From a virus: a stretch of 64,000 bases of DNA. Shown in pieces: positions 8,899 through 57,091 of this stretch. The stretch spans positions 75,596 through 139,595 of the IMG/VR virus record IMGVR_UViG_3300046534_001374; one strand, 5' to 3'. A program made the translations under genes and the position numbers. The notes under the pieces are model-generated. The model worked only from the letters and a program-made list of their open reading frames with translations. It did no database searches and was not told the origin of the DNA. How positions within the stretch are numbered: the first letter of the stretch is position 1; the number at the start of each line of letters is the position of its first letter.

Positions 8899-9384
8899 CT
8901 ATCGAGTTTCGTAAACTTTAGTGAAATCGGTATTGGGCATAAACCATGTATCCTTTACGTCAACCTCGCCATCTTCCTCTAGATTCCACAGAACCCAACC
9001 ATCGTTATTAGGGTTGGCGTATTCCATAGGTCCATCCAAAGTGCCCAGTTCAACAGGATTAATTCCAACTTGCTCTGCTTTGATTGGGTTCTTAGTCCAA
9101 AGATTAGAGGACCATTCATCGGGCATGAGACCTTCAAAAGGATTGTGTGAAGTCCATCCTACGGGATTGTGTTCATCGCCAGCAACTAGATGTGCGACTG
9201 TGTCTTTATCGTTAATCTGAACCCAACATCCTTTAAGATGTTCTTGTTTATTTCCTTCTCCCCAAGAAGTTGATTTGTCTAAGGAAATAGGGTCTGCGCA
9301 CCAAAACATCATTTTTGGTTCGTCTGTTTTTTTGTAGTAGGTTTTCATTTTTAGTTCTTCTGGTTTTCTGTAGTAGGTCTCCAT
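8899..9384 (-). CDS. PGDYG-like domain hypothetical protein
   Basis: C-terminal TLDGPM...GWVL...F..VYE pattern; start likely 9384 or 9348. Confidence 0.5.
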   Translation of the reverse strand: METYYRKPEELKMKTYYKKTDEPKMMFWCADPISLDKSTSWGEGNKQEHLKGCWVQINDKDTVAHLVAGDEHNPVGWTSHNPFEGLMPDEWSSNLWTKNPIKAEQVGINPVELGTLDGPMEYANPNNDGWVLWNLEEDGEVDVKDTWFMPNTDFTKVYETR

Positions 9385-9693
9385 AAATTTGAAGTTACCA
9401 TACGAATTCCTCAAAACAACCCCTAAAATGAAAATAATCGAAAATGTGGAAAACCTCAAAATTTCCCCGCACCTAAATATAATATATGTTTTATATAAGA
9501 TTAATACGGTTTTAAATGAAGTTGTTATAGTATTATGTGTTCCGCCAGAGGCGGTTATATTATTAATATTATATTAAAACCGTTTTTATTCTTTATTTAA
9601 TCCAGATTCTAAGAATATTTAATATCTAGGTAAAAATTTTTCAAGCCATAAAATGAAAAAAGATGAAAAAAGATTTTTATTTGCTTTGAAAAG

Positions 9694-9722
9694 TTGAATT
9701 CGCTTAGGCATTATGCTATAAT
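9694..9722 (+). promoter_or_regulatory. sigma70-type early promoter
   Basis: TTGAAT-N17-TATAAT, 7 nt before the uvsY ATG. Confidence 0.8.
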
Positions 9723-9729
9723 CCTTCAT

Positions 9730-10221
9730 ATGAGTGAGGGTCAATACGATGTTTTTGATAAAATGATTACAAAAATCAAAAGCCGCAATGCTAAAAAAAT
9801 AGCACAGGATTATTTTGATGATTGGGAACGGGATGCATCGGTAGACCAGCTAACATTAATGGTTAAATTAGAGGAGGTTTCTTTGATTGCACATAAATGG
9901 TCAAAGAGAAATTTTGACCAAAAAATGTATTTGTATGAACTTGGTAGAATGAGAGAAACTGTTTTTCAAAAACTTAAAAAAATCAAACAACATTCAGGAG
10001 ATATTTTAGATAAAAGTAGATTTGGAACACTGTCAGAGGATGCTCCAGCTTGGGGTTATGCGTTAAAGAAGGAACAACCTCTTATAGATATTGATAATAG
10101 CATTGCAGAGAATGTGTTGTTGTCTGAGTTTATTCAGGAATATGTAAACTTTGCAAAATTCACATTGATGAAGTCTTGTAGTAGTATTGTTGAACTTAAA
10201 AAAGTCGAAGCCCTAACATAA
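9730..10221 (+). CDS. uvsY: recombination mediator UvsY-like
   Basis: WERDASVDQLTL...LIAHKWSK helical pattern, size, and position directly before uvsW. Confidence 0.6.
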   Translation: MSEGQYDVFDKMITKIKSRNAKKIAQDYFDDWERDASVDQLTLMVKLEEVSLIAHKWSKRNFDQKMYLYELGRMRETVFQKLKKIKQHSGDILDKSRFGTLSEDAPAWGYALKKEQPLIDIDNSIAENVLLSEFIQEYVNFAKFTLMKSCSSIVELKKVEALT

Positions 10222-11718: not shown

Positions 11719-12564
11719 ATGAGTAAGAAAAACGAGAAACATTATGTAATCAAGGAAGACCTTTGGCAGGAGATTAAGGAATTTTATGATTCCGAAGGGG
11801 CTATGGGCAACACATTAGGTGTTGTGATTGACAATATTGCCAACAAAATTATGACTAGTCAAAACTTCAGCGGATATCCTTATAAGCAAGAGATGATCAG
11901 TGATGCTGTTTTGAGGATGGTTACAACGTTATCAGAACGTAAATTTAAACTATGGAGTGACGCCAAATGTAAGAAAATCCAATATAGGTCTTTCGTAGGC
12001 TACAAGGTTGACGGTGAGGTTGATCTTGAAAAGGGCGAGGTTTTACAAGTTAATTCTTTTAATATCTTCGAAAATATTGAATCCCATGAACCTAAAAATA
12101 AGGTTGCGAAAAAAATTAAAGATGTATCAATATTTGATATTGACGCCGAACATTTTTTCCATGAAGATATTAAAGGAGTTGTCAAGAAAACCCCTTGTTG
12201 GAAAAAGAATAGAGTCGCAAAGGGGGTTAGTATTGTTAAAACTGGCGATCCTAATGATTTTTTGGAAATCCACACATATATCGAATCTGACAAGAAAGTT
12301 AATGGCCGAAACCTTTACGTTGTCGGTGACATGTATGATAAAGGAGGTAAGGTAGTTAGGCAGAAAAGTAATGCCTTTGGTTATCTATCTCAAATTGCGA
12401 AACACGAAGCAGTCACTAGAATTAAAAAAGAAAAGAAAAACACCGACGCAATTCGAACACACCAAGAAGATGAAATGGTTTCGTTTCAGTCTGAGAATTG
12501 CGAGATGACTCCGCAAAGAATTTTTGACGACAGTTACGAAAGTTACGATAGCAACAATGAGTAA
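11719..12564 (+). CDS. gp55: late-transcription sigma factor gp55 with large insertion
   Basis: HYV..., NFSGYPYKQEMISDA and NAFGYLSQIA...RIKKEKK gp55 motifs separated by ~135 extra aa. Confidence 0.85.
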   Translation: MSKKNEKHYVIKEDLWQEIKEFYDSEGAMGNTLGVVIDNIANKIMTSQNFSGYPYKQEMISDAVLRMVTTLSERKFKLWSDAKCKKIQYRSFVGYKVDGEVDLEKGEVLQVNSFNIFENIESHEPKNKVAKKIKDVSIFDIDAEHFFHEDIKGVVKKTPCWKKNRVAKGVSIVKTGDPNDFLEIHTYIESDKKVNGRNLYVVGDMYDKGGKVVRQKSNAFGYLSQIAKHEAVTRIKKEKKNTDAIRTHQEDEMVSFQSENCEMTPQRIFDDSYESYDSNNE

Positions 12565-35654: not shown

Positions 35655-35757
35655 TAAAGTGGTATTTAAAGGGAAGGTATTCACATTACCCGAAGATACC
35701 GATGTTGTTACTTTGGAACAACACAAAGAAGAGGTAACTAGATTACTAATAGATTAA
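35494..35757 (+). CDS. candidate o-spanin lipoprotein (Rz1-like)
   Basis: Basic N-terminus, hydrophobic core, lipobox LTSC; +1 frame overlap with 35397 ORF. Confidence 0.6.
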   Translation: MKKKNLYQKLAKLTGLSILALMVLTSCNSSIGLKPIETSSNFSKPKRFQVPANSKVVFKGKVFTLPEDTDVVTLEQHKEEVTRLLID

Positions 35758-35930
35758 CCTTCTAGTAATTGCTTTTCTCCATCCGGTTCGATGCTTTCTT
35801 CTATTTTTAGTTGGTCCAAGTTTTTGAGAATTAAGATAGGGTATTCAACCCATCTATGAGGGGCATCATTGAGAAGATCGATTAATTGGGTTAATTTAGA
35901 TTCCTCAATAACAAATAATTTTTCATCCAT
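35754..35930 (-). CDS. small hypothetical protein
   Basis: ATG 35930 (MDEKLFV) with TAATTA-N5 motif. Confidence 0.55.
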   Translation of the reverse strand: MDEKLFVIEESKLTQLIDLLNDAPHRWVEYPILILKNLDQLKIEESIEPDGEKQLLEG

Positions 35931-35969: not shown

Positions 35970-36088
35970 TATGAACGTCAAAGTGGAGGCGCGATCTAAA
36001 CCGAACTCCGTTCGGGATTAAAACGCGATCTAATATAAAACTCAACTAAGTTAGCGGTAGATCGTCGCTCTCCCACGCCTTGTTGTCT
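35970..36088 (-). repeat. attC: attC site 1 (R'' AGACAAC, R' GTTCATA)
   Basis: 119 bp; 16-bp stem GTGGAGGCGCGATCTA / TAGATCG[T]CGC[T]CTC[C]CAC on + strand. Confidence 0.87.
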
Positions 36089-36135
36089 CTTCAAGTAAAA
36101 CTTGAACTATTGATTTCGACATCTAATTAAATGTG

Positions 36136-36333
36136 ATGAAAAGTAAAATCAAAGCATGGTGGGAAACATTTTGGTTCAAATATGTCCCTGCTTCTACAAG
36201 TCAAGTGTTGTCGTGGCAGAGTAAACAGCGCGAGGAGCTGAATCGTCGGGATGCGGAGCGATATTACAATCGTCAAAATATGAAGAATAATCAACAAAAG
36301 CAGAAAGACGGTCCTGAAAATCACGAAGGATAG
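36136..36333 (+). CDS. cassette A reverse ORF (late motif)
   Basis: TAATTA-N6-ATG; MKSKIKAWWETFWFKYV... Confidence 0.55.
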   Translation: MKSKIKAWWETFWFKYVPASTSQVLSWQSKQREELNRRDAERYYNRQNMKNNQQKQKDGPENHEG

Positions 36334-36511
36334 CCTCCAATTCACCACTAATAAAAGATTCTTCTATTACTTCTCCGTTTGGTTGAAAAGTTTTTCCACT
36401 GAATTTCTCATCATACGATTCATCTGAGAGTTTCTCCTTGATCACAATCCTAACGGATGATAAGTTGGAAAACGTGTAATCTAATTCGTGGTGTTTTGAG
36501 AATCTATTCAT
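36194..36511 (-). CDS. cassette A forward ORF
   Basis: ATG ~15 nt after the G/TT crossover, 105 aa. Confidence 0.55.
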   Translation of the reverse strand: MNRFSKHHELDYTFSNLSSVRIVIKEKLSDESYDEKFSGKTFQPNGEVIEESFISGELEAILRDFQDRLSAFVDYSSYFDDCNIAPHPDDSAPRAVYSATTTLDL

Positions 36512-36520
36512 GATTTTCTA

Positions 36521-36652
36521 AGACAACGATGGAGCATATCTAATCAATACCAATTTCAATATGAATACAAAAAATAATAAACAAACAACTAATGACTCCT
36601 CCAAAACCAACCAAGGTAGCGGTAGTGAGTTAGATACTGCGCCTTGTTCACC
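36521..36652 (-). repeat. attC: attC site 2, divergent type (R'' GGTGAAC, R' GTTGTCT)
   Basis: 132 bp; stem GCATATCTAATC / GA[G]TTAGATA[C]TGC, 5/6-nt spacers, shares TAGCGGTAG with the other copies. Confidence 0.8.
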
Positions 36653-36920
36653 TCTCCGTCTTTTTGATCTGACTAAGACAACACCAGAAATGGTTGAACA
36701 AGAATCAAATTACGAATCCCCTACTTTGAAGCAGAAACAACTAGCTCTGAAAAAAGAGGTATATCCAGATCAATCCCCGCAAGCTCTATCAAAGAGTTAT
36801 CAAGACGCTCTTGAGCTTGGTTACGTGAAACCTCAGAATCCCAATTTTGATTGGGAACCTTATAAAGATTTGGTTTGTAGATTGGTAAATTCCGAAGATC
36901 AGATTTCAGCTTCGGTATAA
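36561..36920 (+). CDS. cassette B reverse ORF starting inside attC2
   Basis: 119 aa, reads through the R'' box as ELDTAPCSP. Confidence 0.45.
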   Translation: MNTKNNKQTTNDSSKTNQGSGSELDTAPCSPLRLFDLTKTTPEMVEQESNYESPTLKQKQLALKKEVYPDQSPQALSKSYQDALELGYVKPQNPNFDWEPYKDLVCRLVNSEDQISASV

Positions 36921-36996
36921 TATATTGAAGCTGTTTCTTCCTGTGGTGTAATGATTCTAGTATTTCTAGGCATTGTGCTTTTGTTGGATCGGGCAT
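36721..36996 (-). CDS. cassette B forward ORF
   Basis: ATG ~18 nt after crossover, 91 aa. Confidence 0.45.
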   Translation of the reverse strand: MPDPTKAQCLEILESLHHRKKQLQYIIPKLKSDLRNLPIYKPNLYKVPNQNWDSEVSRNQAQERLDNSLIELAGIDLDIPLFSELVVSASK

Positions 36997-37008
36997 GTCC
37001 TATTTCTA

Positions 37009-37127
37009 GGTGAACGTCAATGTGGAGGCGCGATCTAAACCGAACTCCGTTCGGGATTAAAACGCGATCTAATATAAAAATAAACTAAGTTAGCGGTAGA
37101 TCGTCGCTCTCTCACGTCTTGTTAGCC
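37009..37127 (-). repeat. attC: attC site 3 (R'' GGCTAAC, R' GTTCACC)
   Basis: 119-bp copy of the repeat family. Confidence 0.88.
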
Positions 37128-37157
37128 CTTCAAATGGTTTTAGGGATAAATATAAGC

Positions 37158-37352
37158 ATGAGAAAACCAAACAGCCCACTAAGAACAATGGATAAGCTCC
37201 TTAAGCCATACATGCAGGAAATAAAAAATCCCGATAGCTGTGATGATCTACTAAATTATTTTGCAGATTGTATGGATGAATGGTGGAATAATCTAGATGC
37301 ACGAAATAAAGAATGCCCCCTTCCCCGAAAAGCTAATCTAGAGAAAATATAG
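37158..37352 (+). CDS. cassette C reverse ORF (late motif)
   Basis: TAAATA-N5-ATG; 64 aa MRKPNSPLRTMDKLLKPY... Confidence 0.6.
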   Translation: MRKPNSPLRTMDKLLKPYMQEIKNPDSCDDLLNYFADCMDEWWNNLDARNKECPLPRKANLEKI

Positions 37353-37569
37353 TTCCGTCAGTTTCAATTCGTTTGGCAAAATCTTGTATCTTATCTTTAT
37401 CTTTCAGTGAATTTAGAGCTACTTCAATCTGAGAAGCCGTTAGATTCCCTTTTTCTTGTTCAGTGATATGCCATTCTCCAAAATCTTCAGAGTTTATTTT
37501 CTTTAAGATTTCGGTTTCCAGTTCTCTTTTTGGGTTTAGTCTAAGATTATAGTTATTTGGTTCTGACAT
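37333..37569 (-). CDS. cassette C forward ORF
   Basis: ATG ~23 nt after crossover, 78 aa. Confidence 0.6.
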   Translation of the reverse strand: MSEPNNYNLRLNPKRELETEILKKINSEDFGEWHITEQEKGNLTASQIEVALNSLKDKDKIQDFAKRIETDGTIFSLD

Positions 37570-37586
37570 GATTTCTTAGATTCTCG

Positions 37587-37704
37587 GGCTAACGTCAATG
37601 TGGAGGCGCGATCTAAACCGAACTCCGTTCGGAATTAAAACGCGATAATACATAAACATAACTAAGCTAGCGGTAGATCGTCGCCCTCTCACGCCTTGTT
37701 CTGC
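37587..37704 (-). repeat. attC: attC site 4 (R'' GCAGAAC, R' GTTAGCC)
   Basis: 118-bp copy of the repeat family. Confidence 0.88.
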
Positions 37705-37724
37705 ATCTGGGCCTAAGTATGAAT

Positions 37725-38075
37725 ATGACCTATGAACAAGAACGAATCCTAATAAACCAAACAATCCAAGATTACCTAAATTCATGGCATCATCGCATCT
37801 GGACCCAAGCGATCACTCAACTTGACCTGTCAGTTCCAAATACCCCCTTTCGTCTTGTGAGATTTGAACTAGGGCGACTTCTTCTTGTTTTATCTCACCT
37901 TGTGTTTGTCGGTTCCCATCTAAAAGACAGAGTGCTTCAAACATTCGGTGCTGGGGAAAAATTTGACACCTTACAAGGTCCAGTGGCAACATTAGGTTTT
38001 CGAGATCAGTTCTCAGACTATACCAAAATCTACCGACATAAGATCCACCACGAAGATCAAAATCGTTGCAAATGA
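37725..38075 (+). CDS. cassette D reverse ORF (late motif)
   Basis: TAAGTA-N5-ATG; MTYEQERILINQTIQDYL... Confidence 0.5.
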   Translation: MTYEQERILINQTIQDYLNSWHHRIWTQAITQLDLSVPNTPFRLVRFELGRLLLVLSHLVFVGSHLKDRVLQTFGAGEKFDTLQGPVATLGFRDQFSDYTKIYRHKIHHEDQNRCK

Positions 38076-38187
38076 AAATAATCCTTTCGGAGCTTTGATA
38101 TACCATTTTCGCATCAAGAAAATTACTTAGATCAAGTTCTTCGTCGGGATCACTATAATACAGTCTAAAATATGTAGGTTTACTCAT
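37813..38187 (-). CDS. cassette D forward ORF
   Basis: ATG ~22 nt after crossover, 124 aa. Confidence 0.55.
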   Translation of the reverse strand: MSKPTYFRLYYSDPDEELDLSNFLDAKMVYQSSERIIFICNDFDLRGGSYVGRFWYSLRTDLENLMLPLDLVRCQIFPQHRMFEALCLLDGNRQTQGEIKQEEVALVQISQDERGYLELTGQVE

Positions 38188-38203
38188 GGATTCTTAGTTT
38201 CTA

Positions 38204-38322
38204 GCAGAACGTCAATGTGGAGGCGCGATCTAAACCGAACGTAGTTCGGGATTAAAACGCGATCTAATATAAAAATAAACTAAGTTAGCGGTAGATCGTC
38301 GTCCTCCCACGTCTTGTTCTGC
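38204..38322 (-). repeat. attC: attC site 5 (R'' GCAGAAC, R' GTTCTGC)
   Basis: 119-bp copy of the repeat family. Confidence 0.88.
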
Positions 38323-38363
38323 ATCTGGATTTGAAAAGTTTGATGTGATTACTAATTAAAGTA

Positions 38364-38513
38364 ATGAACGAACAAAAAACTTTGGTGTATGATGGTGAAC
38401 TAACTCTAGACGAAGCCAGAAACAAAATCAGAAACAAAGATGGTTCAAAACTTACGGATGCGGAGTTTGTTGAATTATTCCAACCCTTTACCAAGGAAGC
38501 TTCTCGTCCCTAA
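38364..38513 (+). CDS. cassette E reverse ORF (late motif), 49 aa
   Basis: TAATTA-N5-ATG; MNEQKTLVYDGELTLDEARNKIRNKDGSKLTDAEFVELFQPFTKEASRP (below ORF-track cutoff, translated by hand). Confidence 0.55.
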   Translation: MNEQKTLVYDGELTLDEARNKIRNKDGSKLTDAEFVELFQPFTKEASRP

Positions 38514-38676
38514 TTTCAATATTGTTTAAAATCACAAGCGGTAACCCCTCATTTGTTCGTTTAGTAATTTTAGATTGTTTCTCACACCACTCCATTTCTG
38601 ATTGATTTGGTGTTTGGAATGACCAAATATAATATTCTGGTCCTTGTGAGTTGGTTACGGTGTATTGCTGGATCAT
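38488..38676 (-). CDS. cassette E forward ORF
   Basis: ATG ~29 nt after crossover, 62 aa. Confidence 0.55.
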   Translation of the reverse strand: MIQQYTVTNSQGPEYYIWSFQTPNQSEMEWCEKQSKITKRTNEGLPLVILNNIEIRDEKLPW

Positions 38677-38699
38677 AATTATCTAGTAGGTAATTTATT

Positions 38700-38818
38700 G
38701 CAGAACGTCAATGTGGAGGCGCGATCTAAACCGAACTCCGTTCGGAATTGAAACGCGATCTGATATAAAAATAAACTAAGCTAGCGGTAGAACGTCACTC
38801 TCTCACGTCTTATTAATA
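38700..38818 (-). repeat. attC: attC site 6, degenerate (R'' AAC mutated to AAT, stem mismatches)
   Basis: 119-bp copy with right arm TAGAACGTCACTCTCTCAC and R'' reading ATTAATA on + strand. Confidence 0.8.
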
Positions 38819-38861
38819 ATATAAAACTTGAAAAGAGGAATTTTTATAGTAATCTCATCTT

Positions 38862-39764
38862 ATGAAGAACATCCTAATAGATGCCAACAATATGCTACAC
38901 AGGAGCATAGGCAACACCGAGAAGTATCTAGAAAAAAATTCGAGAGCAACTAGAAAGCTGGACAATAAAGGAAACGATGTCACTGCTTTGCAGAAGTTTT
39001 TTTCGGATATATACTATACCTCCTCAGATTTTCTTGATGCAGACACAGAAATTTATATGGTGTGGGATAGGAAGATCGACCCAGAAGCGATCAACTGGAG
39101 AACCACAGTTAACCCACTTTATAAAGCAAACAGAGGATCTATAGATACTAATGGTCCGAAGAAGCAAGTGTATAGCCTATGTAAACATGCCAAATATATA
39201 GCAGATGCCTACGGGTTTCATTCAGTATTTCCCCTCTGCTCCGAAGCAGACGACCTAATACATTATCTCAATAAAAACCTAGAAGGCGGTAGTTTGATTA
39301 TTTCTTCCGACCATGACTTCTTCCAATGTATATCTGAGGATTGCAGTATTTATAACCCCCAGAAAAGAATGCTTCTGGAACTTGATAACTGGGATGAATA
39401 TGCCCCAGTATCTAAAGAACACTATGTTTTATGGAAATCAATTAAGGGCGACCCCTCTGATAACATCAAAGGGTTGTTCCGTTATGGTGAGAAGAAAGCT
39501 AAAAAGCTGGTCGAGAACTGGGACGAGCTTTCACCTAAACTGACAGAGGAGCAAATAGATATTATTGAGGAAACTAAAAGTTTAATTGATCTTAATTTTA
39601 AACCTTTATCTGATAAAGAGGTGTGCTTCATTAAGAGGCAGATCGAGCCTAAAGAAAAAAAGAAAGATTGGGAATTGACTCGGATTCTGGACAACTACCA
39701 TGTCACCTACAAGACCAGAGAGATGTGGGATAACTTCAACACCCTAAAAGAGTTATATCTATAA
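38862..39764 (+). CDS. rnh: RNase H / 5'-3' flap exonuclease
   Basis: LIDANN, WR..VNPLYKANR, EADD, SSDHDFFQ, GDPSDNIKG. Confidence 0.92.
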   Translation: MKNILIDANNMLHRSIGNTEKYLEKNSRATRKLDNKGNDVTALQKFFSDIYYTSSDFLDADTEIYMVWDRKIDPEAINWRTTVNPLYKANRGSIDTNGPKKQVYSLCKHAKYIADAYGFHSVFPLCSEADDLIHYLNKNLEGGSLIISSDHDFFQCISEDCSIYNPQKRMLLELDNWDEYAPVSKEHYVLWKSIKGDPSDNIKGLFRYGEKKAKKLVENWDELSPKLTEEQIDIIEETKSLIDLNFKPLSDKEVCFIKRQIEPKEKKKDWELTRILDNYHVTYKTREMWDNFNTLKELYL

Positions 39765-42148: not shown

Positions 42149-42209
42149 ATACATTAATTAGTCTCCGACCTCATTTAAAAATCATATAGGAGTTGCTATA
42201 ATTACTATC

Positions 42210-45173
42210 ATGTCACAGCCAATCTCACCAGCGATTATCATCAATGAGAATTTTGATGCTAGACCTTTAATCCCAGAAGGATATAATGTGCTATGTTTAG
42301 GTTTCACATCCGAAGGTGTAGCGAACGAGCCATTTATCCTAAGAAGCTTACCCGAGTTTATTACTCTCTTTGGTGAGCCAGATCCGTCACGAACCGAACA
42401 GATCTACTCATTCGAGTCTGCTAAAAGGATTATTGAGTCTGGAGCCAACTTAGTTTTTGTTAAACTTCCATATGGACCTGAAGAAGGTTTCGATGTTGGT
42501 GATGAATACTCAGCCCTCCTTTACCCAGCACTTGAGGACACAGTCTCCGAGTCGGTTATTTTAAATTACAAGGCTACTCAAGATATTACTCCAGAAGAAT
42601 TCGGAGATCTCAAAACGGTCAAACCGTTTGATACTGGTTTGGCTGAAGGTGGATTACTGAGTGCGTATGAGTATACTCAGATCATTGCAGCAACTACCAC
42701 ATTTGATCCAGCGATCACTATTGATGACTTTGTATATAATTCTAATTCGGGTGGTCTTAAAACTGAATACACATACGTAGTAACAAGCGGCGACTTAAAT
42801 GCCACTAACGGAGTTCAGTTGACTGGACTGGAATCCGCAATCCAATCAGCATTTTCGGTAAACGATTCTGGTTATATTGGAGCGGTAGGGGCCGGTTCCG
42901 AACGTGTTCCTATCAGTGATTATCAATATAAGTTAATGGTCGAGGAAAATCCATTAGAAGCAGATAAATTTAAAGCCGTTATCCCCCGTAGCGGGGCAAC
43001 TGCCGAGTGGGTTTATGTTGGGGCTTCATACCCTGCTATTGTGGATCTAGGGGCTTATGAATTATATGATGGTGTGGGCGTTTCAGCCGGAACTATAGAT
43101 TTGGAAGTTGTATTTGTTTCGGGGCTTGTAGCCAACCAAGAATTAACCACAACAGAGTATCTCGCAATGCTCCTAATTATGGATGATAGTTCGTTCGAAC
43201 CATCACTCCTTACGGAAGTGTTTACAGTAACCGACAGTGTAGGCTATGTTCTCGGACAACCTGTTCGTATCGATCTTGATGAAAATGGCTACGATAAGAT
43301 CCAATGCGGCCTTATTGACTGGTCAACCAGTTACACTATTTTTGATGATACTATTACTACGTTTGACCCTGTCGAGTTTGGTAAGGTAGGTCTTATTGTA
43401 TTAGATAGCGGTCGCTCCAAAACCAAGGATGCTCGCGAAGGTTACTATATCACCGTAACAGACAATACCGATGGCGACCCAGCGTCTGATTGGGATTCTA
43501 TCACTAATATCAAGACCAGCACATCCACTACGGGTGAAGTTATTTGGGACGACCTGTCAACAGACACTTACGACTTTAATTTGAAAGCTCCTTTCGGAGA
43601 ACCTGTCCCCAGTATATCGCAAGCAGTTTCTGCTCTTTCCGAACAGCATATCAATGGATCATGGTCAGACCCAGATCATAGAAACTTCTTGAATGTTACC
43701 CTATGGAGACTTCGTAAAGATGTTCAAAATGGTTCTAATCAACTAATTCCCAGTGTTGTTGAATCCCACACTGGTTCTATTTCTGAAATCGAGAAGACTA
43801 TCACCGAAGGTGGCTTCCAACAAAATATCTTTTTGGAGAGTAAAGTTGAAGGCGATTCAAGTAGACTGACGGTATTAGTAAATCCCAATATCGCAGATGA
43901 TAGTTACGTAGGCACTGATGGACAGAAAATCAAGAATGTTAGAATGTGGAGAGGTAACACTAATGGTTTAGGGTCTAGCTTCCTTTCTCTTTCAGAAGCT
44001 AACTTTAAGGGGTATTCCAACGGGATGTATTCCGTTAGTCAGTATGTAGCGAAACAACCAGAAAAAGCTTGTGACGTGGGTAATATTCCGGCTAAACTGA
44101 GAAACGCTCTTTGCACCGTTGATAATCCCGAGCGTGTAAGCCTCGACCTTTCGATTGAAGCGGGTTTAGGAACCATCTGGAACACGGTTAAGGAAGACCG
44201 AGATCAATGGCTCACAAGCACACAGGCGGACAACTCTTTCTGCTTCAATGATAAAGTATTCCTTAATGTCGTTGAAGATCTTGGTAGAACAGTTCCCGAA
44301 GGTTCTGAAACAGGAAACATGAGAACTAACTGGAGACAGATCTACGACACTTTCCTCACTTTCACCGAATCGACTAGAGTGGTTAACGGCGGTATACATC
44401 ACTTACATATTGCAGATAACCTCAGACATTCTCTGGTTAATGGTAGGGATTGTAAAGTTTATGATTCGAAGACCAAATGTAAAAATGCTGGAGTTTTCCA
44501 GACCGAAGTTTACTGGCCCTTGAAAAACCTTACTAAAGGATTGAGCAACACTATCACGACTATCGATGCCCAATGGTATAAGTCGAGCAACGTTTATAGT
44601 TCTTCTCCAGTTTGGATTCCGAGTTCACCTGTTACTGCGGCACTGTTCGCACAAACAGACTTCCCTTGGTTGGCTGCTGCTGGTGTTCAAAGAGGTTTGA
44701 TCCGAAATGTTGTTGATGCAGCAATCGATCCGGTTCTTCGCGACCGAGATTACTTGTTCAAGATCCAGCAAAACGCGGTATTCTTCGACAAGAACTACGA
44801 CGGTTTCCTTCGTTTCGCAGATAGAACAATGCTTAAGAATGATAACCACCAACTAAAAGAAAACTCTGCGAGAAGACTACTTATTTGGCTTGAAGGAAAT
44901 CTTCAGTCCGCGCTTAGACCGTTCTTATTTGAGCAGAATAACCTTCAGACCAGAATTCGTTTCAAGAATAACATTGAACTCTACTTGAACACCCTGCTTC
45001 AAAATGGGGCGATTGAAGATTTCAATGTAAGTTTGAAAAAGAATACTCTAGCCACACAACAGGACGGTTGCTTAGTTGCTGATATCGGCATCACCATTAC
45101 CGGAATCGTTAATCAGATCAAACTTAACCTTAACCTCCTTAGGTTGGATCAAAACTTCCAAGAAGTTTTTTAA
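42210..45173 (+). CDS. gp18: tail sheath protein
   Basis: ISPAIIINE, F..LFGEP, PWLAAAGVQRG, RRLLIWLE, FLFEQN...TR..F sheath motifs. Confidence 0.92.
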   Translation: MSQPISPAIIINENFDARPLIPEGYNVLCLGFTSEGVANEPFILRSLPEFITLFGEPDPSRTEQIYSFESAKRIIESGANLVFVKLPYGPEEGFDVGDEYSALLYPALEDTVSESVILNYKATQDITPEEFGDLKTVKPFDTGLAEGGLLSAYEYTQIIAATTTFDPAITIDDFVYNSNSGGLKTEYTYVVTSGDLNATNGVQLTGLESAIQSAFSVNDSGYIGAVGAGSERVPISDYQYKLMVEENPLEADKFKAVIPRSGATAEWVYVGASYPAIVDLGAYELYDGVGVSAGTIDLEVVFVSGLVANQELTTTEYLAMLLIMDDSSFEPSLLTEVFTVTDSVGYVLGQPVRIDLDENGYDKIQCGLIDWSTSYTIFDDTITTFDPVEFGKVGLIVLDSGRSKTKDAREGYYITVTDNTDGDPASDWDSITNIKTSTSTTGEVIWDDLSTDTYDFNLKAPFGEPVPSISQAVSALSEQHINGSWSDPDHRNFLNVTLWRLRKDVQNGSNQLIPSVVESHTGSISEIEKTITEGGFQQNIFLESKVEGDSSRLTVLVNPNIADDSYVGTDGQKIKNVRMWRGNTNGLGSSFLSLSEANFKGYSNGMYSVSQYVAKQPEKACDVGNIPAKLRNALCTVDNPERVSLDLSIEAGLGTIWNTVKEDRDQWLTSTQADNSFCFNDKVFLNVVEDLGRTVPEGSETGNMRTNWRQIYDTFLTFTESTRVVNGGIHHLHIADNLRHSLVNGRDCKVYDSKTKCKNAGVFQTEVYWPLKNLTKGLSNTITTIDAQWYKSSNVYSSSPVWIPSSPVTAALFAQTDFPWLAAAGVQRGLIRNVVDAAIDPVLRDRDYLFKIQQNAVFFDKNYDGFLRFADRTMLKNDNHQLKENSARRLLIWLEGNLQSALRPFLFEQNNLQTRIRFKNNIELYLNTLLQNGAIEDFNVSLKKNTLATQQDGCLVADIGITITGIVNQIKLNLNLLRLDQNFQEVF

Positions 45174-54408: not shown

Positions 54409-54457
54409 ATAATTAACTTTTAACGTAGCTTATGCTATAATTAATATTTATGGGATA
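54394..54457 (+). repeat. 64-bp direct repeat, copy 1
   Basis: GTATACTCCGATTAAATAATTAACTT...CTATAATTAATATTTATGGGATA. Confidence 0.88.
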
Positions 54458-56606: not shown

Positions 56607-56638
56607 AGAAAAATCTTGAGTGGAGACTAATTAAAAGT

Positions 56639-57091
56639 ATGAGTATTAGTAGTAGATTCGCCAAGAGATACACCGTTTCTGGTGAGCTTGAAATTGTCAT
56701 TCTAAAGGATGATTCGGGCGTATTGCTTAGTAATCGCCTAGGACCATACTCTGTAAGCACACCGCCGAGTAGCACAGAGTTCCCCGATTGGGCAACCCTC
56801 ATTACCACAGTGGAAGATGCTATGGTTAATACTTTAGATGTTAAGCGAGTGGAGCTTAGTGGACCTACAACATGGACTACTGATGCTACTATCGTATCAT
56901 TCAATCTAAAAGCAATACTATCAGACAGTTCGACACTCACTGATATTGATTCTGTAGTTACACCTATCATCACTGGAGAGACCGTCAATTATACGGCAGA
57001 ACAGAATGGTAAAAACGAACTAGGTTCTGGTGTTATTCTCACTGTTGCTTCTGGCGATACCTTTATTGTCGAGTATATGGTTTCTTCTTAA
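56639..57091 (+). CDS. probable virion protein
   Basis: 150 aa, beta-rich, TAATTA-N5 motif. Confidence 0.6.
   Translation: MSISSRFAKRYTVSGELEIVILKDDSGVLLSNRLGPYSVSTPPSSTEFPDWATLITTVEDAMVNTLDVKRVELSGPTTWTTDATIVSFNLKAILSDSSTLTDIDSVVTPIITGETVNYTAEQNGKNELGSGVILTVASGDTFIVEYMVSS

Follow-up and report, generated by a model that had tools for sequence, protein, structure and literature searches.

Converging open reading frames in integron-type cassettes of a divergent T4-like phage, one of which recurs in an integrase-bearing bacterial array

The DNA examined here (the window) comprises the 3′ 64 kb of a 139,595-bp virus contig of the IMG/VR collection and carries, at positions 35972–38824, a five-cassette array of the integron type. 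Each cassette combines an attC recombination site with two small open reading frames (ORFs) that run towards each other, and one of the cassettes recurs unchanged in a bacterial array that bears an integron integrase. We regard it as probable, if not strongly so, that these are two-faced phage cassettes, each made of one attC site and two converging genes, that move between phage arrays and an integron of a Luteolibacter-like bacterium. Integron cassettes are normally described as promoterless single genes, and their origin is an old open question.

The phage is a very divergent T4-like virus. Its contig has a G+C (GC) content of 38% and is ~65% complete according to CheckV. It encodes a sheath protein (window positions 42210–45173), a gp55-like late σ factor (11719–12564, matching phrog_234, 1.6e-13), UvsW, DNA polymerase B, UvsX, a DnaB-like helicase, and the large terminase. 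A second array on the opposite strand (genome positions 9038–10205, locus L014:239–1406) has two class-1 and one class-2 attC sites and holds cassettes X and Y with the same converging pairs. Four further cassettes (L016_A, L016_B, L019_1, and L019_2) are located on related contigs from other samples. For a cassette cN of the window, the minus-strand, integron-sense ORF is termed cN_can and the plus-strand, phage-sense ORF is termed cN_rev.

Two converging ORFs occupy fixed positions in every cassette

The five minus ORFs of the window begin at 36511, 36996, 37569, 38187, and 38676, exactly where a preliminary description of this DNA had placed them, and each of them is overlapped at its 3′ end by an opposing plus ORF, as that description had also claimed (by 140, 200, 20, 263, and 26 nt in c1 to c5, respectively). 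Its distances needed slight revision: the minus ORFs start 17–29 nt, not 15–29 nt, after the AA|C crossover and end 71–200 nt, not 65–205 nt, before R″. The plus ORF that lacks the start motif described below (36561) begins inside the loop of a class-2 attC site (36527–36650), which had been overlooked.

This converging design is found in 11 of 11 cassettes (five in the window, X, Y, L016_A, L016_B, L019_1, and L019_2). In all of them, a top-strand ORF of 46–124 amino acids starts 17–29 nt past the crossover, and a bottom-strand ORF of 49–119 amino acids starts either downstream of the motif, at 35–56 nt past R″, or at the class-2 loop ATG; the 3′ overlaps range from 4 to 263 nt. A canonical ORF of at least 45 codons within 35 nt of the crossover is present in all 11 cassettes; shuffled sequences had on average 0.34 such cassettes and never more than 4. 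Furthermore, for six of the seven pairs of this phage, the partner lies in the antisense register in which stops are most frequent in the phage genes (0.082, versus 0.036 and 0.046 in the other two registers). Both ORF sets are non-random.

Codon usage was scored with a model whose training set was 92 long phage ORFs, with 144 spurious ORFs inside long genes serving as the null distribution (95th percentile 0.106, maximum 0.235). The scores of c1_can, c3_can, X_can, Y_can, c2_rev, c5_rev, X_rev, Y_rev, and all ORFs of L016_A, L016_B, and L019_2 (0.24–0.41) exceed the spurious maximum, and those of c4_can, c5_can, c1_rev, c3_rev, and both L019_1 ORFs (0.14–0.22) lie between the 95th percentile and the maximum. 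The gene caller of the Joint Genome Institute (JGI) called both partners in c3, c5, L016_A, L016_B, and L019_2. On the basis of these features, we read the pairs as probably real in most cassettes, with one member doubtful in c2 and in c4.

A search of 1.8 billion proteins with c1_can identified a full-length homologue, P0007 (41–43% identity, E = 5.9e-13). The antisense frame of the P0007 gene (locus L020) is likewise open, for 52 codons, with its stop within 1–2 codons of the homologous place, and the 9 nt past the canonical stop are nearly unchanged relative to c1. Protein searches with c4_can and c5_rev found only these proteins themselves, and the ESM Atlas contained only sub-threshold matches for c4_can and for the body of Y_rev. 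The eleven pairs are mutually unrelated, and there are no homologous cassette pairs among them that could be used for a two-frame comparison of nonsynonymous and synonymous substitution rates (dN/dS). An AlphaFold2 model of c1_can, built from a two-sequence alignment, had a predicted local distance difference test (pLDDT) score of 52, too poor for a fold search, and the predicted complex of c3_can and c3_rev scored 0.01, which argues neither for nor against binding. The sole cassette product with a recognizable feature is that of the L019_1 top-strand ORF (L019:265–492, minus strand), which has two CxxC pairs and the look of a zinc ribbon.

Four of the five plus ORFs are preceded by a start signal of the phage

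The plus ORFs of c1, c3, c4, and c5 are preceded by TAA[ATG]TA-N5-6-ATG, i.e. by a hexamer 5–6 nt upstream of the start codon, at the sites given in the preliminary description. This occurrence exceeds chance: when the five cassette bodies were dinucleotide-shuffled 5000 times, the motif was present on the plus strand of a mean of 0.116 cassettes out of five and never in four or more, and the motif followed by an ORF of at least 45 codons had a mean of 0.006. The minus strands of the cassettes do not contain it at all.

The same signal is used throughout the genome, which bears out its identification as the phage's own: there are 61 sites, with an ORF of 40 codons or more behind 53 of them, and two of the genes so preceded are the sheath gene and a gene for a tube-like protein. 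The motif is found before the first ATG of 27 of the 92 long ORFs (29%) but before only 1.3% of all ATGs, and its distance to the ATG peaks sharply at 5 and 6 nt. TAATTA (66%) and TAAATA (25%) are the prevailing forms, with A or C preceding the core; the exact T4 octamer is present at only some sites. Six replication and recombination genes (UvsW, Metallophos, AAA, DNA polymerase B, UvsX, and DnaB-like) lack the motif. This distribution is consistent with a late gene class, most motif-bearing genes being unnamed. The motif can be interpreted as a gp55-type late promoter, in which case the 5–6-nt spacing would place the transcript start at or next to the AUG and give leaderless mRNAs.

Throughout the genome, TAA(T/A)TA stands at a fixed 5–6 nt before the ATG and a Shine–Dalgarno sequence is lacking (e.g. 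window positions 42199–42212, 54438–54452, and 56628–56641), and the σ70-like promoters of this phage similarly end 6–7 nt before the ATG. This organization suggests that many mRNAs of this phage are leaderless.

The preliminary description had further inferred that the plus ORFs can be read only by the gp55-containing RNA polymerase, a restriction that is not supported. A TTG is located 16–17 nt upstream of the motif at 13 of the 53 sites, against a background of 8.8%, and among the five plus-type ORFs that have the motif in this phage, three (c1, c5, and X) also have TTGAMA (M, A or C) 16 nt upstream. Because of these boxes, exclusive dependence on gp55 is not established.

The cassette boundaries have the features of integron-type recombination sites

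The cassettes are delimited by a ~120-nt repeat, which is present in five copies that are 84–96% alike and in the class-2 variant. Folded as single-stranded DNA, its plus strand forms an outer R box, in which xxxxAAC pairs with GTTxxxx, and which an unpaired spacer separates from a long stem. The stem is interrupted by two or three single-base bulges, and these are confined to its 3′ arm. Six folded copies, including AT-rich ones and GC-rich ones from metagenomes with unrelated stems, share this one architecture. The restriction of the bulges to one arm identifies the window plus strand as bottom-type and the minus strand as the one that normally codes (top strand), which supports the earlier assignment of the minus strand as canonical. 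The orientation of attC also matches gene direction within the integrase-bearing array described below.

The attC ends have the sequence AACGTCAAWGTGGAGG...CTCYCACGNCTTGTT. In all seven cassettes of the phage, the bases that follow GTT are the reverse complement of the bases that precede AAC at the other end. This R′/R″ complementarity spans 7–8 nt, is specific to each cassette (e.g. GTTAGCCC/GGGCTAAC, GTTCACC/GGTGAAC, GTTGTCT/AGACAAC), and also holds in the integrase-bearing contig L026. Independent assemblies switch sequence exactly at the crossover in three contig comparisons. L010 is identical to the window over 4264 nt, as far as ...AAC|GTTCTGC, where it passes into a different, GC-rich site; L018 and L019 have one cassette in common and diverge directly after GGTGAAC|GT; and L001/L007 and L003/L006 have the element and the right flank, but not the left flank, in common. 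The 86-nt alternative junction of L010 is absent from both the phage genome and the viral-contig collection.

These cassettes are real integron-type units. Two other identities of the repeat were rejected: no Rfam family matches it, which rules out a known structured RNA, and a miniature inverted-repeat transposable element with target-site duplication disagrees with the flanks, which are inverted complements around each body and not direct repeats around elements. A single promoterless ORF that ends at or in attC is found in host-type cassettes but not in the phage cassettes.

Contig L010, which is otherwise identical to the phage, has a site of a GC-rich class in place of c5 beside c4, so the content of the array differs among co-occurring phage variants. 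Sites of the GC-rich attC classes 3 and 4 adjoin phage-type cassettes at this site of L010 (1–86) and also at L019:1090–1194, L022:2338–2463, and the tails of L018 and L023. The array DNA had no blastn match among 50,697 phage records, the exact attC core was found in neither the viral-contig nor the genome-contig collection, and searches based on rnh and on c1_can yielded no related viral loci.

Cassette c5 is shared with an array that bears an integron integrase

The c5_rev protein is present on nine contigs. The 495-nt cassette c5 is 100% identical on contigs L022/L033, L023, and L025, which derive from three samples, and its neighbors there are different on both sides: the flanks have a GC content of ~47–53% and contain other classes of the same attC site family. 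L033 continues, at 100% identity over 1840 nt, into L026, which encodes a divergently oriented integron integrase truncated by the contig end (TIGR02249, 3.4e-62; PF13495 and PF00589) and contains an attI-like junction (...aaatact|GTTAGCC) and a row of co-oriented single-ORF cassettes with stops in R″, among them DUF6714 and HicAB. A Luteolibacter metagenome-assembled genome (MAG) encodes an integrase that shares 70% identity with this one and also has a single site of the same attC family; this already-found MAG was the only hit when 400 Verrucomicrobiota genomes were searched for the attC-end pattern. Cassette c5 moves as a discrete unit between arrays. A group II intron reverse transcriptase (RVT_1 and GIIM; L029:2742–4172) is inserted in a further contig of this array, in the orientation opposite to that of the cassettes.

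Within the integron array, c5_can shares its direction with the remaining cassette genes, to which c5_rev is opposed. TAA[ATG]TA-N5-6-ATG is found on neither strand of ~34 kb of largely overlapping integron-array contigs, and the neighbors of c5 contain no credible reverse ORF. The bodies of the phage cassettes have a GC content of 35–40%, close to the 38% of the phage, compared to 48–50% for the integron array. Phage and bacterial cassettes have the top-strand leader GTTnnnnYTAGAAA...ATG in common, and a single sample yielded both phage contig L009 and integron contig L027.

The presence of identical copies of c5 in the phage and in an integrase-adjacent array lends direct support to the proposal of the preliminary description that these are dual-context cassettes, of which the part concerning exclusive transcription by the gp55-containing polymerase is not supported. 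Its suggestion that the cassettes are phage-built agrees with their base composition and with the absence of the motif from the integron contigs. These properties would fit cassettes that were shaped, or perhaps born, in the phage.

A model of two-faced cassettes and its alternatives

Combining these results, we propose the following model. Each ~0.5-kb cassette would be composed of one attC hairpin and two small converging genes. The top-strand gene would have the integron layout, being promoterless and read from the integron promoter Pc once the cassette resides in a bacterial array. The bottom-strand gene would have the phage layout: with its own start signal, it would be read in the direction of the flanking phage genes, with which the bottom-strand genes are indeed co-directional in both arrays and on L016. 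It would start 35–56 nt beyond R″ behind TAA(T/A)TA-N5-6-ATG, with T4-late-type transcription probably initiating at or next to the AUG, or, in cassettes with a class-2 attC, at the ATG of the loop instead. In this way, each gene of a pair might be expressed in its own context. Entire units would move between phage arrays and the chromosomal-type integron of a Luteolibacter-like bacterium, presumably by means of the integron integrase of that bacterium, because the phage contig holds none.

Several observations weigh against this model. No tyrosine recombinase or integrase was found on the phage contig, which is ~65% complete, and no promoter for the top-strand genes was found within the phage. 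Both junctions of c5 in the integron contigs are slightly irregular (an extra A and an extra TCTAC), and these contigs are short (up to 7 kb) and have no link to a chromosome. None of the ten window ORFs belongs to a known family, as searches of Pfam, PHROGs, and PADLOC gave nothing significant. The codon scores of c2_can (0.10) and c4_rev (0.03) resemble those of non-coding sequence, and JGI called a single gene in each of c1, c2, and c4. The statement that every cassette holds a gene pair consequently applies to most cassettes, with c4_rev and c2_can possibly non-coding. When the better ORF of each cassette was resampled synonymously, the partner frame remained open by chance in 15% (c1), 1.6% (c2), 3.1% (c4), and 59% (X) of trials, so the long overlaps constitute only modest to weak evidence. 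Lastly, c1_can is the only ORF with a homologue beyond the attC-encoded leader, and conservation on both strands was therefore tested in one case.

The low scores, the single gene calls, and the chance openness of the partner frames in c1 and X are what would be expected if each cassette contained one real gene, canonical or reverse, with the partner ORF a by-product of the amino acid sequence and the AT-rich DNA and with the motif marking only the real reverse genes. The location of the terminator-like hairpin of c2_rev inside c2_can fits this alternative as well. We nevertheless consider it unlikely. Both ORFs are found at fixed positions in all 11 cassettes, and six of seven pairs lie in the least open antisense frame (stop frequency 0.082). 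In c3, c5, Y, L016_B, and L019_2, the overlap is a mere 4–48 nt, each ORF has a coding-like stretch of its own, and in nearly all of these five cassettes both ORFs were called as genes. Finally, the c1 homologue, at 41% identity, keeps both frames open.

The other alternatives concern the function of the cassettes and the nature of their ends. Convergence, with 3′ ends that overlap by 4–263 nt in every cassette, and the presence of toxin–antitoxin cassettes such as HicAB in the related bacterial array would suit regulatory or addiction modules, in which convergent antisense or toxin/antitoxin-like pairs stabilize the arrays through interacting products or RNAs. We judge this quite improbable: no toxin, antitoxin, or defense family was matched in Pfam, PHROGs, or PADLOC, which leaves the functions suggested in the preliminary description unsupported; the eleven pairs are mutually unrelated, unlike members of a module family; and known toxin–antitoxin cassettes are co-directional operons, whereas the genes here converge. 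The capture of host defense cassettes by the phage, with the reverse ORF as a phage-triggered component, had likewise been put forward. Integron cassettes can carry defense genes, and a phage motif would couple their expression to infection. This origin fits poorly with the composition of the cassette bodies, which is phage-like (35–40% GC) and not integron-like (48–50%); host-type cassettes contain neither the motif nor reverse ORFs, and PADLOC gave no match at E < 0.003. We thus hold it to be very improbable. Equally hard to credit is the notion that the cassettes are phage regulatory units of the promoter early stem-loop (PeSL) type, shuffled by phage recombination, and that they came to resemble attC by convergence. 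Each plus ORF is indeed preceded, amid conserved T4-like genes, by a hairpin and then a promoter-like element, which is the PeSL layout (PMC2839356, PMC4122927), and the rnh gene and two large phage genes have the same module upstream. Yet the breakpoints fall at one exact position, the inverted 7–8-mers are cassette-specific, the bulges are confined to one arm, and the same site family is found beside an integron integrase in an array that has c5 in common with the phage.

The model of two-faced cassettes may be extended to propose that phage genomes are a workshop or source of cassettes, in which the bottom gene would serve the phage from a leaderless late-type promoter of its own and the top gene would become Pc-readable after transfer of the unit to the bacterial integron by the host integrase, with two-way shuttling during infection. 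We offer this extension tentatively and think it rather doubtful. The material nevertheless represents a natural set of cassettes with phage base composition and a phage start signal, and a bacterial integron sampled in the same series contains one of them in identical form. It offers a concrete system in which the passage of cassettes between a lytic-type phage and a chromosomal-type integron can be put to the test, and a cassette design readable from either strand depending on residence. If both genes are expressed, phages could shuffle accessory genes with a host recombinase and bacteria would gain an import route for phage genes.

Relationship to known systems

The presence of attC arrays on a phage is not in itself new: virulent phages are reported to carry attC clusters without an integrase (CALINs), and IntI1 recombines their sites (Qi et al. 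2023, PMC9892861). The phage CALINs, as far as the portion of that report covered here describes them, resemble the present arrays in their attC organization, in their small ORFs of no known function, in the lytic-type genome, and in the lack of an integrase nearby. Arrays with divergent directions or with several ORFs between sites are also noted there. The present arrays differ from them in having a converging pair in every cassette, with a reverse gene behind a phage start signal, and in having a cassette identical to one in a bacterial integrase-bearing array; the same portion reports no cassette shared by phage and bacterium. More generally, in the parts of the literature on phage attC arrays and PeSLs that we covered, we encountered no description of a constant two-gene converging design, of a phage start signal within cassettes, or of a phage that has an identical cassette in common with an integrase-bearing array.

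Like classical cassettes, those of the phage have R″/L″/L′/R′ elements, one-arm bulges, an AA|C (G|TT) crossover, cassette-specific R boxes, and a short leader before the top-strand ATG, and move as discrete units. Unlike them, they have a top-strand ORF that stops 71–200 nt before R″, a promoter-like element and the start of the opposing gene in the resulting gap, and an attC of ~120 nt with three bulges. PeSLs, the stem-loop and promoter units that shuffle small ORFs in T4-type phages (PMC2839356, PMC4122927), are similar in part: repeated units of this kind flank small novel ORFs of variable T4-like regions and have been linked to modular shuffling. They are, however, short, have early σ70-type promoters, and are thought to recombine by homology, whereas the repeat described here is ~120 nt long, has site-specific breakpoints, and belongs to an integron site family.

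The T4 late promoter TATAAATA, which is used by the gp55–RNA polymerase complex, lacks a −35 element and initiates transcripts 6–7 nt downstream. The start signal resembles it in part through an AT-rich −10-type element, the exact octamer being present at some sites only, and may likewise do without a fixed −35 element. A gp55 homologue is encoded by this phage, and the signal precedes the sheath gene and the tube-like gene but not the replication genes. In contrast to the T4 late promoter, the signal is fixed 5–6 nt before the ATG without a Shine–Dalgarno sequence, which would imply leaderless mRNAs, and a quarter of its sites have a TTG 16–17 nt upstream. Promoters inside cassettes, independent of Pc, are also a property of certain cassettes of sedentary chromosomal integrons (bioRxiv 10.1101/2023.11.21.568050), to which the putative promoters described here can be likened. 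Judging from the part of that study we consulted, those are bacterial promoters in Vibrionaceae arrays; the element in the present cassettes is the phage's own and faces against the array.

Features of the array and its surroundings

The elements of the window array are listed in Table 1. The codon score of c2_can drops to −0.006 in the part that does not overlap c2_rev, and the plus-strand terminator-like hairpin falls within c2_can. The start of c4_rev is the weakest motif case: TAAGTA, the rarest variant of the motif, occupies 37714–37719 and lies 5 nt before 37725, which is the second in-frame ATG (the first is at 37719). In c5_rev (38364–38513), TAATTA (38353–38358) is located 5 nt before the ATG at 38364, and its promoter stretch shares 90% identity with the one in cassette X of the second array. 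An rnh-type exonuclease gene follows the array at 38862 behind TTGAAA-N16-TAATCT-N6-ATG.

Table 1 Elements of the five-cassette array (window positions).
Feature	Position	Strand	Remarks
attC-like site, class 1, cassette c1	35972–36094	+ (bottom-type strand)	Repeat family; fold of sister copies
Start signal of c1_rev, TAATTA-N6-ATG	36124–36138	+	Motif 36124–36129; TTGAAC 16 nt upstream
c1_rev, 65 aa, phage-sense	36136–36333	+	Motif; codon score 0.18; not a JGI gene
c1_can, 105 aa, integron-sense	36194–36511	−	Codon score 0.25; homologue P0007
attC variant, class 2, cassette c2	36527–36650	+	Loop contains ATG of c2_rev
c2_rev, 119 aa	36561–36920	+	Codon score 0.27; JGI gene; relatives P0002, P0003, P0005
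c2_can, 91 aa, doubtful	36721–36996	−	Codon score 0.10; not a JGI gene
Terminator-like hairpin at c2_rev stop	36907–36933	+	12-bp stem, then T run
attC, class 1, cassette c3	37011–37133	+	
Start signal of c3_rev, TAAATA-N5-ATG	37147–37160	+	Motif 37147–37152
c3_rev, 64 aa (72 aa from ATG 37134)	37158–37352	+	Codon score 0.19; JGI gene
c3_can, 78 aa	37333–37569	−	Codon score 0.32; JGI gene
attC, class 1, cassette c4	37589–37710	+	
TAAGTA-N5-ATG (37725) and c4_rev, 116–118 aa, doubtful	37714–38075	+	Codon score 0.03; not a JGI gene
c4_can, 124 aa	37813–38187	−	Codon score 0.17; JGI gene
Cassette c5, discrete mobile unit (attC, motif, c5_rev, c5_can)	38211–38705		495 nt
TTGAAA-N16-TAATTA-N5-ATG and c5_rev, 49 aa	38353–38513	+	Codon score 0.41; JGI gene
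c5_can, 62 aa	38488–38676	−	Codon score 0.14; JGI gene in phage and integron contexts
attC, terminal	38702–38824	+	Degenerate R″ (CTTATT)

A 58-codon ORF on the top strand (35754–35930, minus), located 44 nt past the crossover and just beyond the last attC, has its own TTGTTT-N16-TAATTA-N5-ATG and is the sole top-strand ORF at the array with the motif. In the second array, a phage gene of 570 codons occupies the reverse-ORF position behind TTGTGA-N16-TAATTA-N5-ATG. A half attC site at genome positions 67856–67930 (locus L015) is followed by a 538-codon gene behind CTAATTA-N6-ATG, and the half sites of L015 and L018:119–198 begin at an identical internal point (model position 48).

The first 30 amino acids of c2_rev are encoded by attC, and these 30 residues head four proteins in all, P0002–P0005, the bodies of which are unrelated. 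This class-2 N-terminus is conserved and polar, with the sequence MNTKNNKQTTND...GSGSELDTAPC (window positions 36561–36650; also L014, L016, and L019), and may be either a leader peptide or only a start site. Single sites with conserved ends and unrelated GC-rich centers are located inside gene rows on L001–L008 and L012, i.e. on phage-like contigs and in a Luteolibacter MAG. A single conserved leader peptide derived from the GC-rich loop ORFs (L001, L004, L005, and L012) was rejected, as the reading frames of the 3′ arm differ. At these single sites, the loop often contains the end of the upstream ORF, which follows ...NVKVE(G/A)P, and often the start of the next ORF, sometimes with an ATGA overlap.

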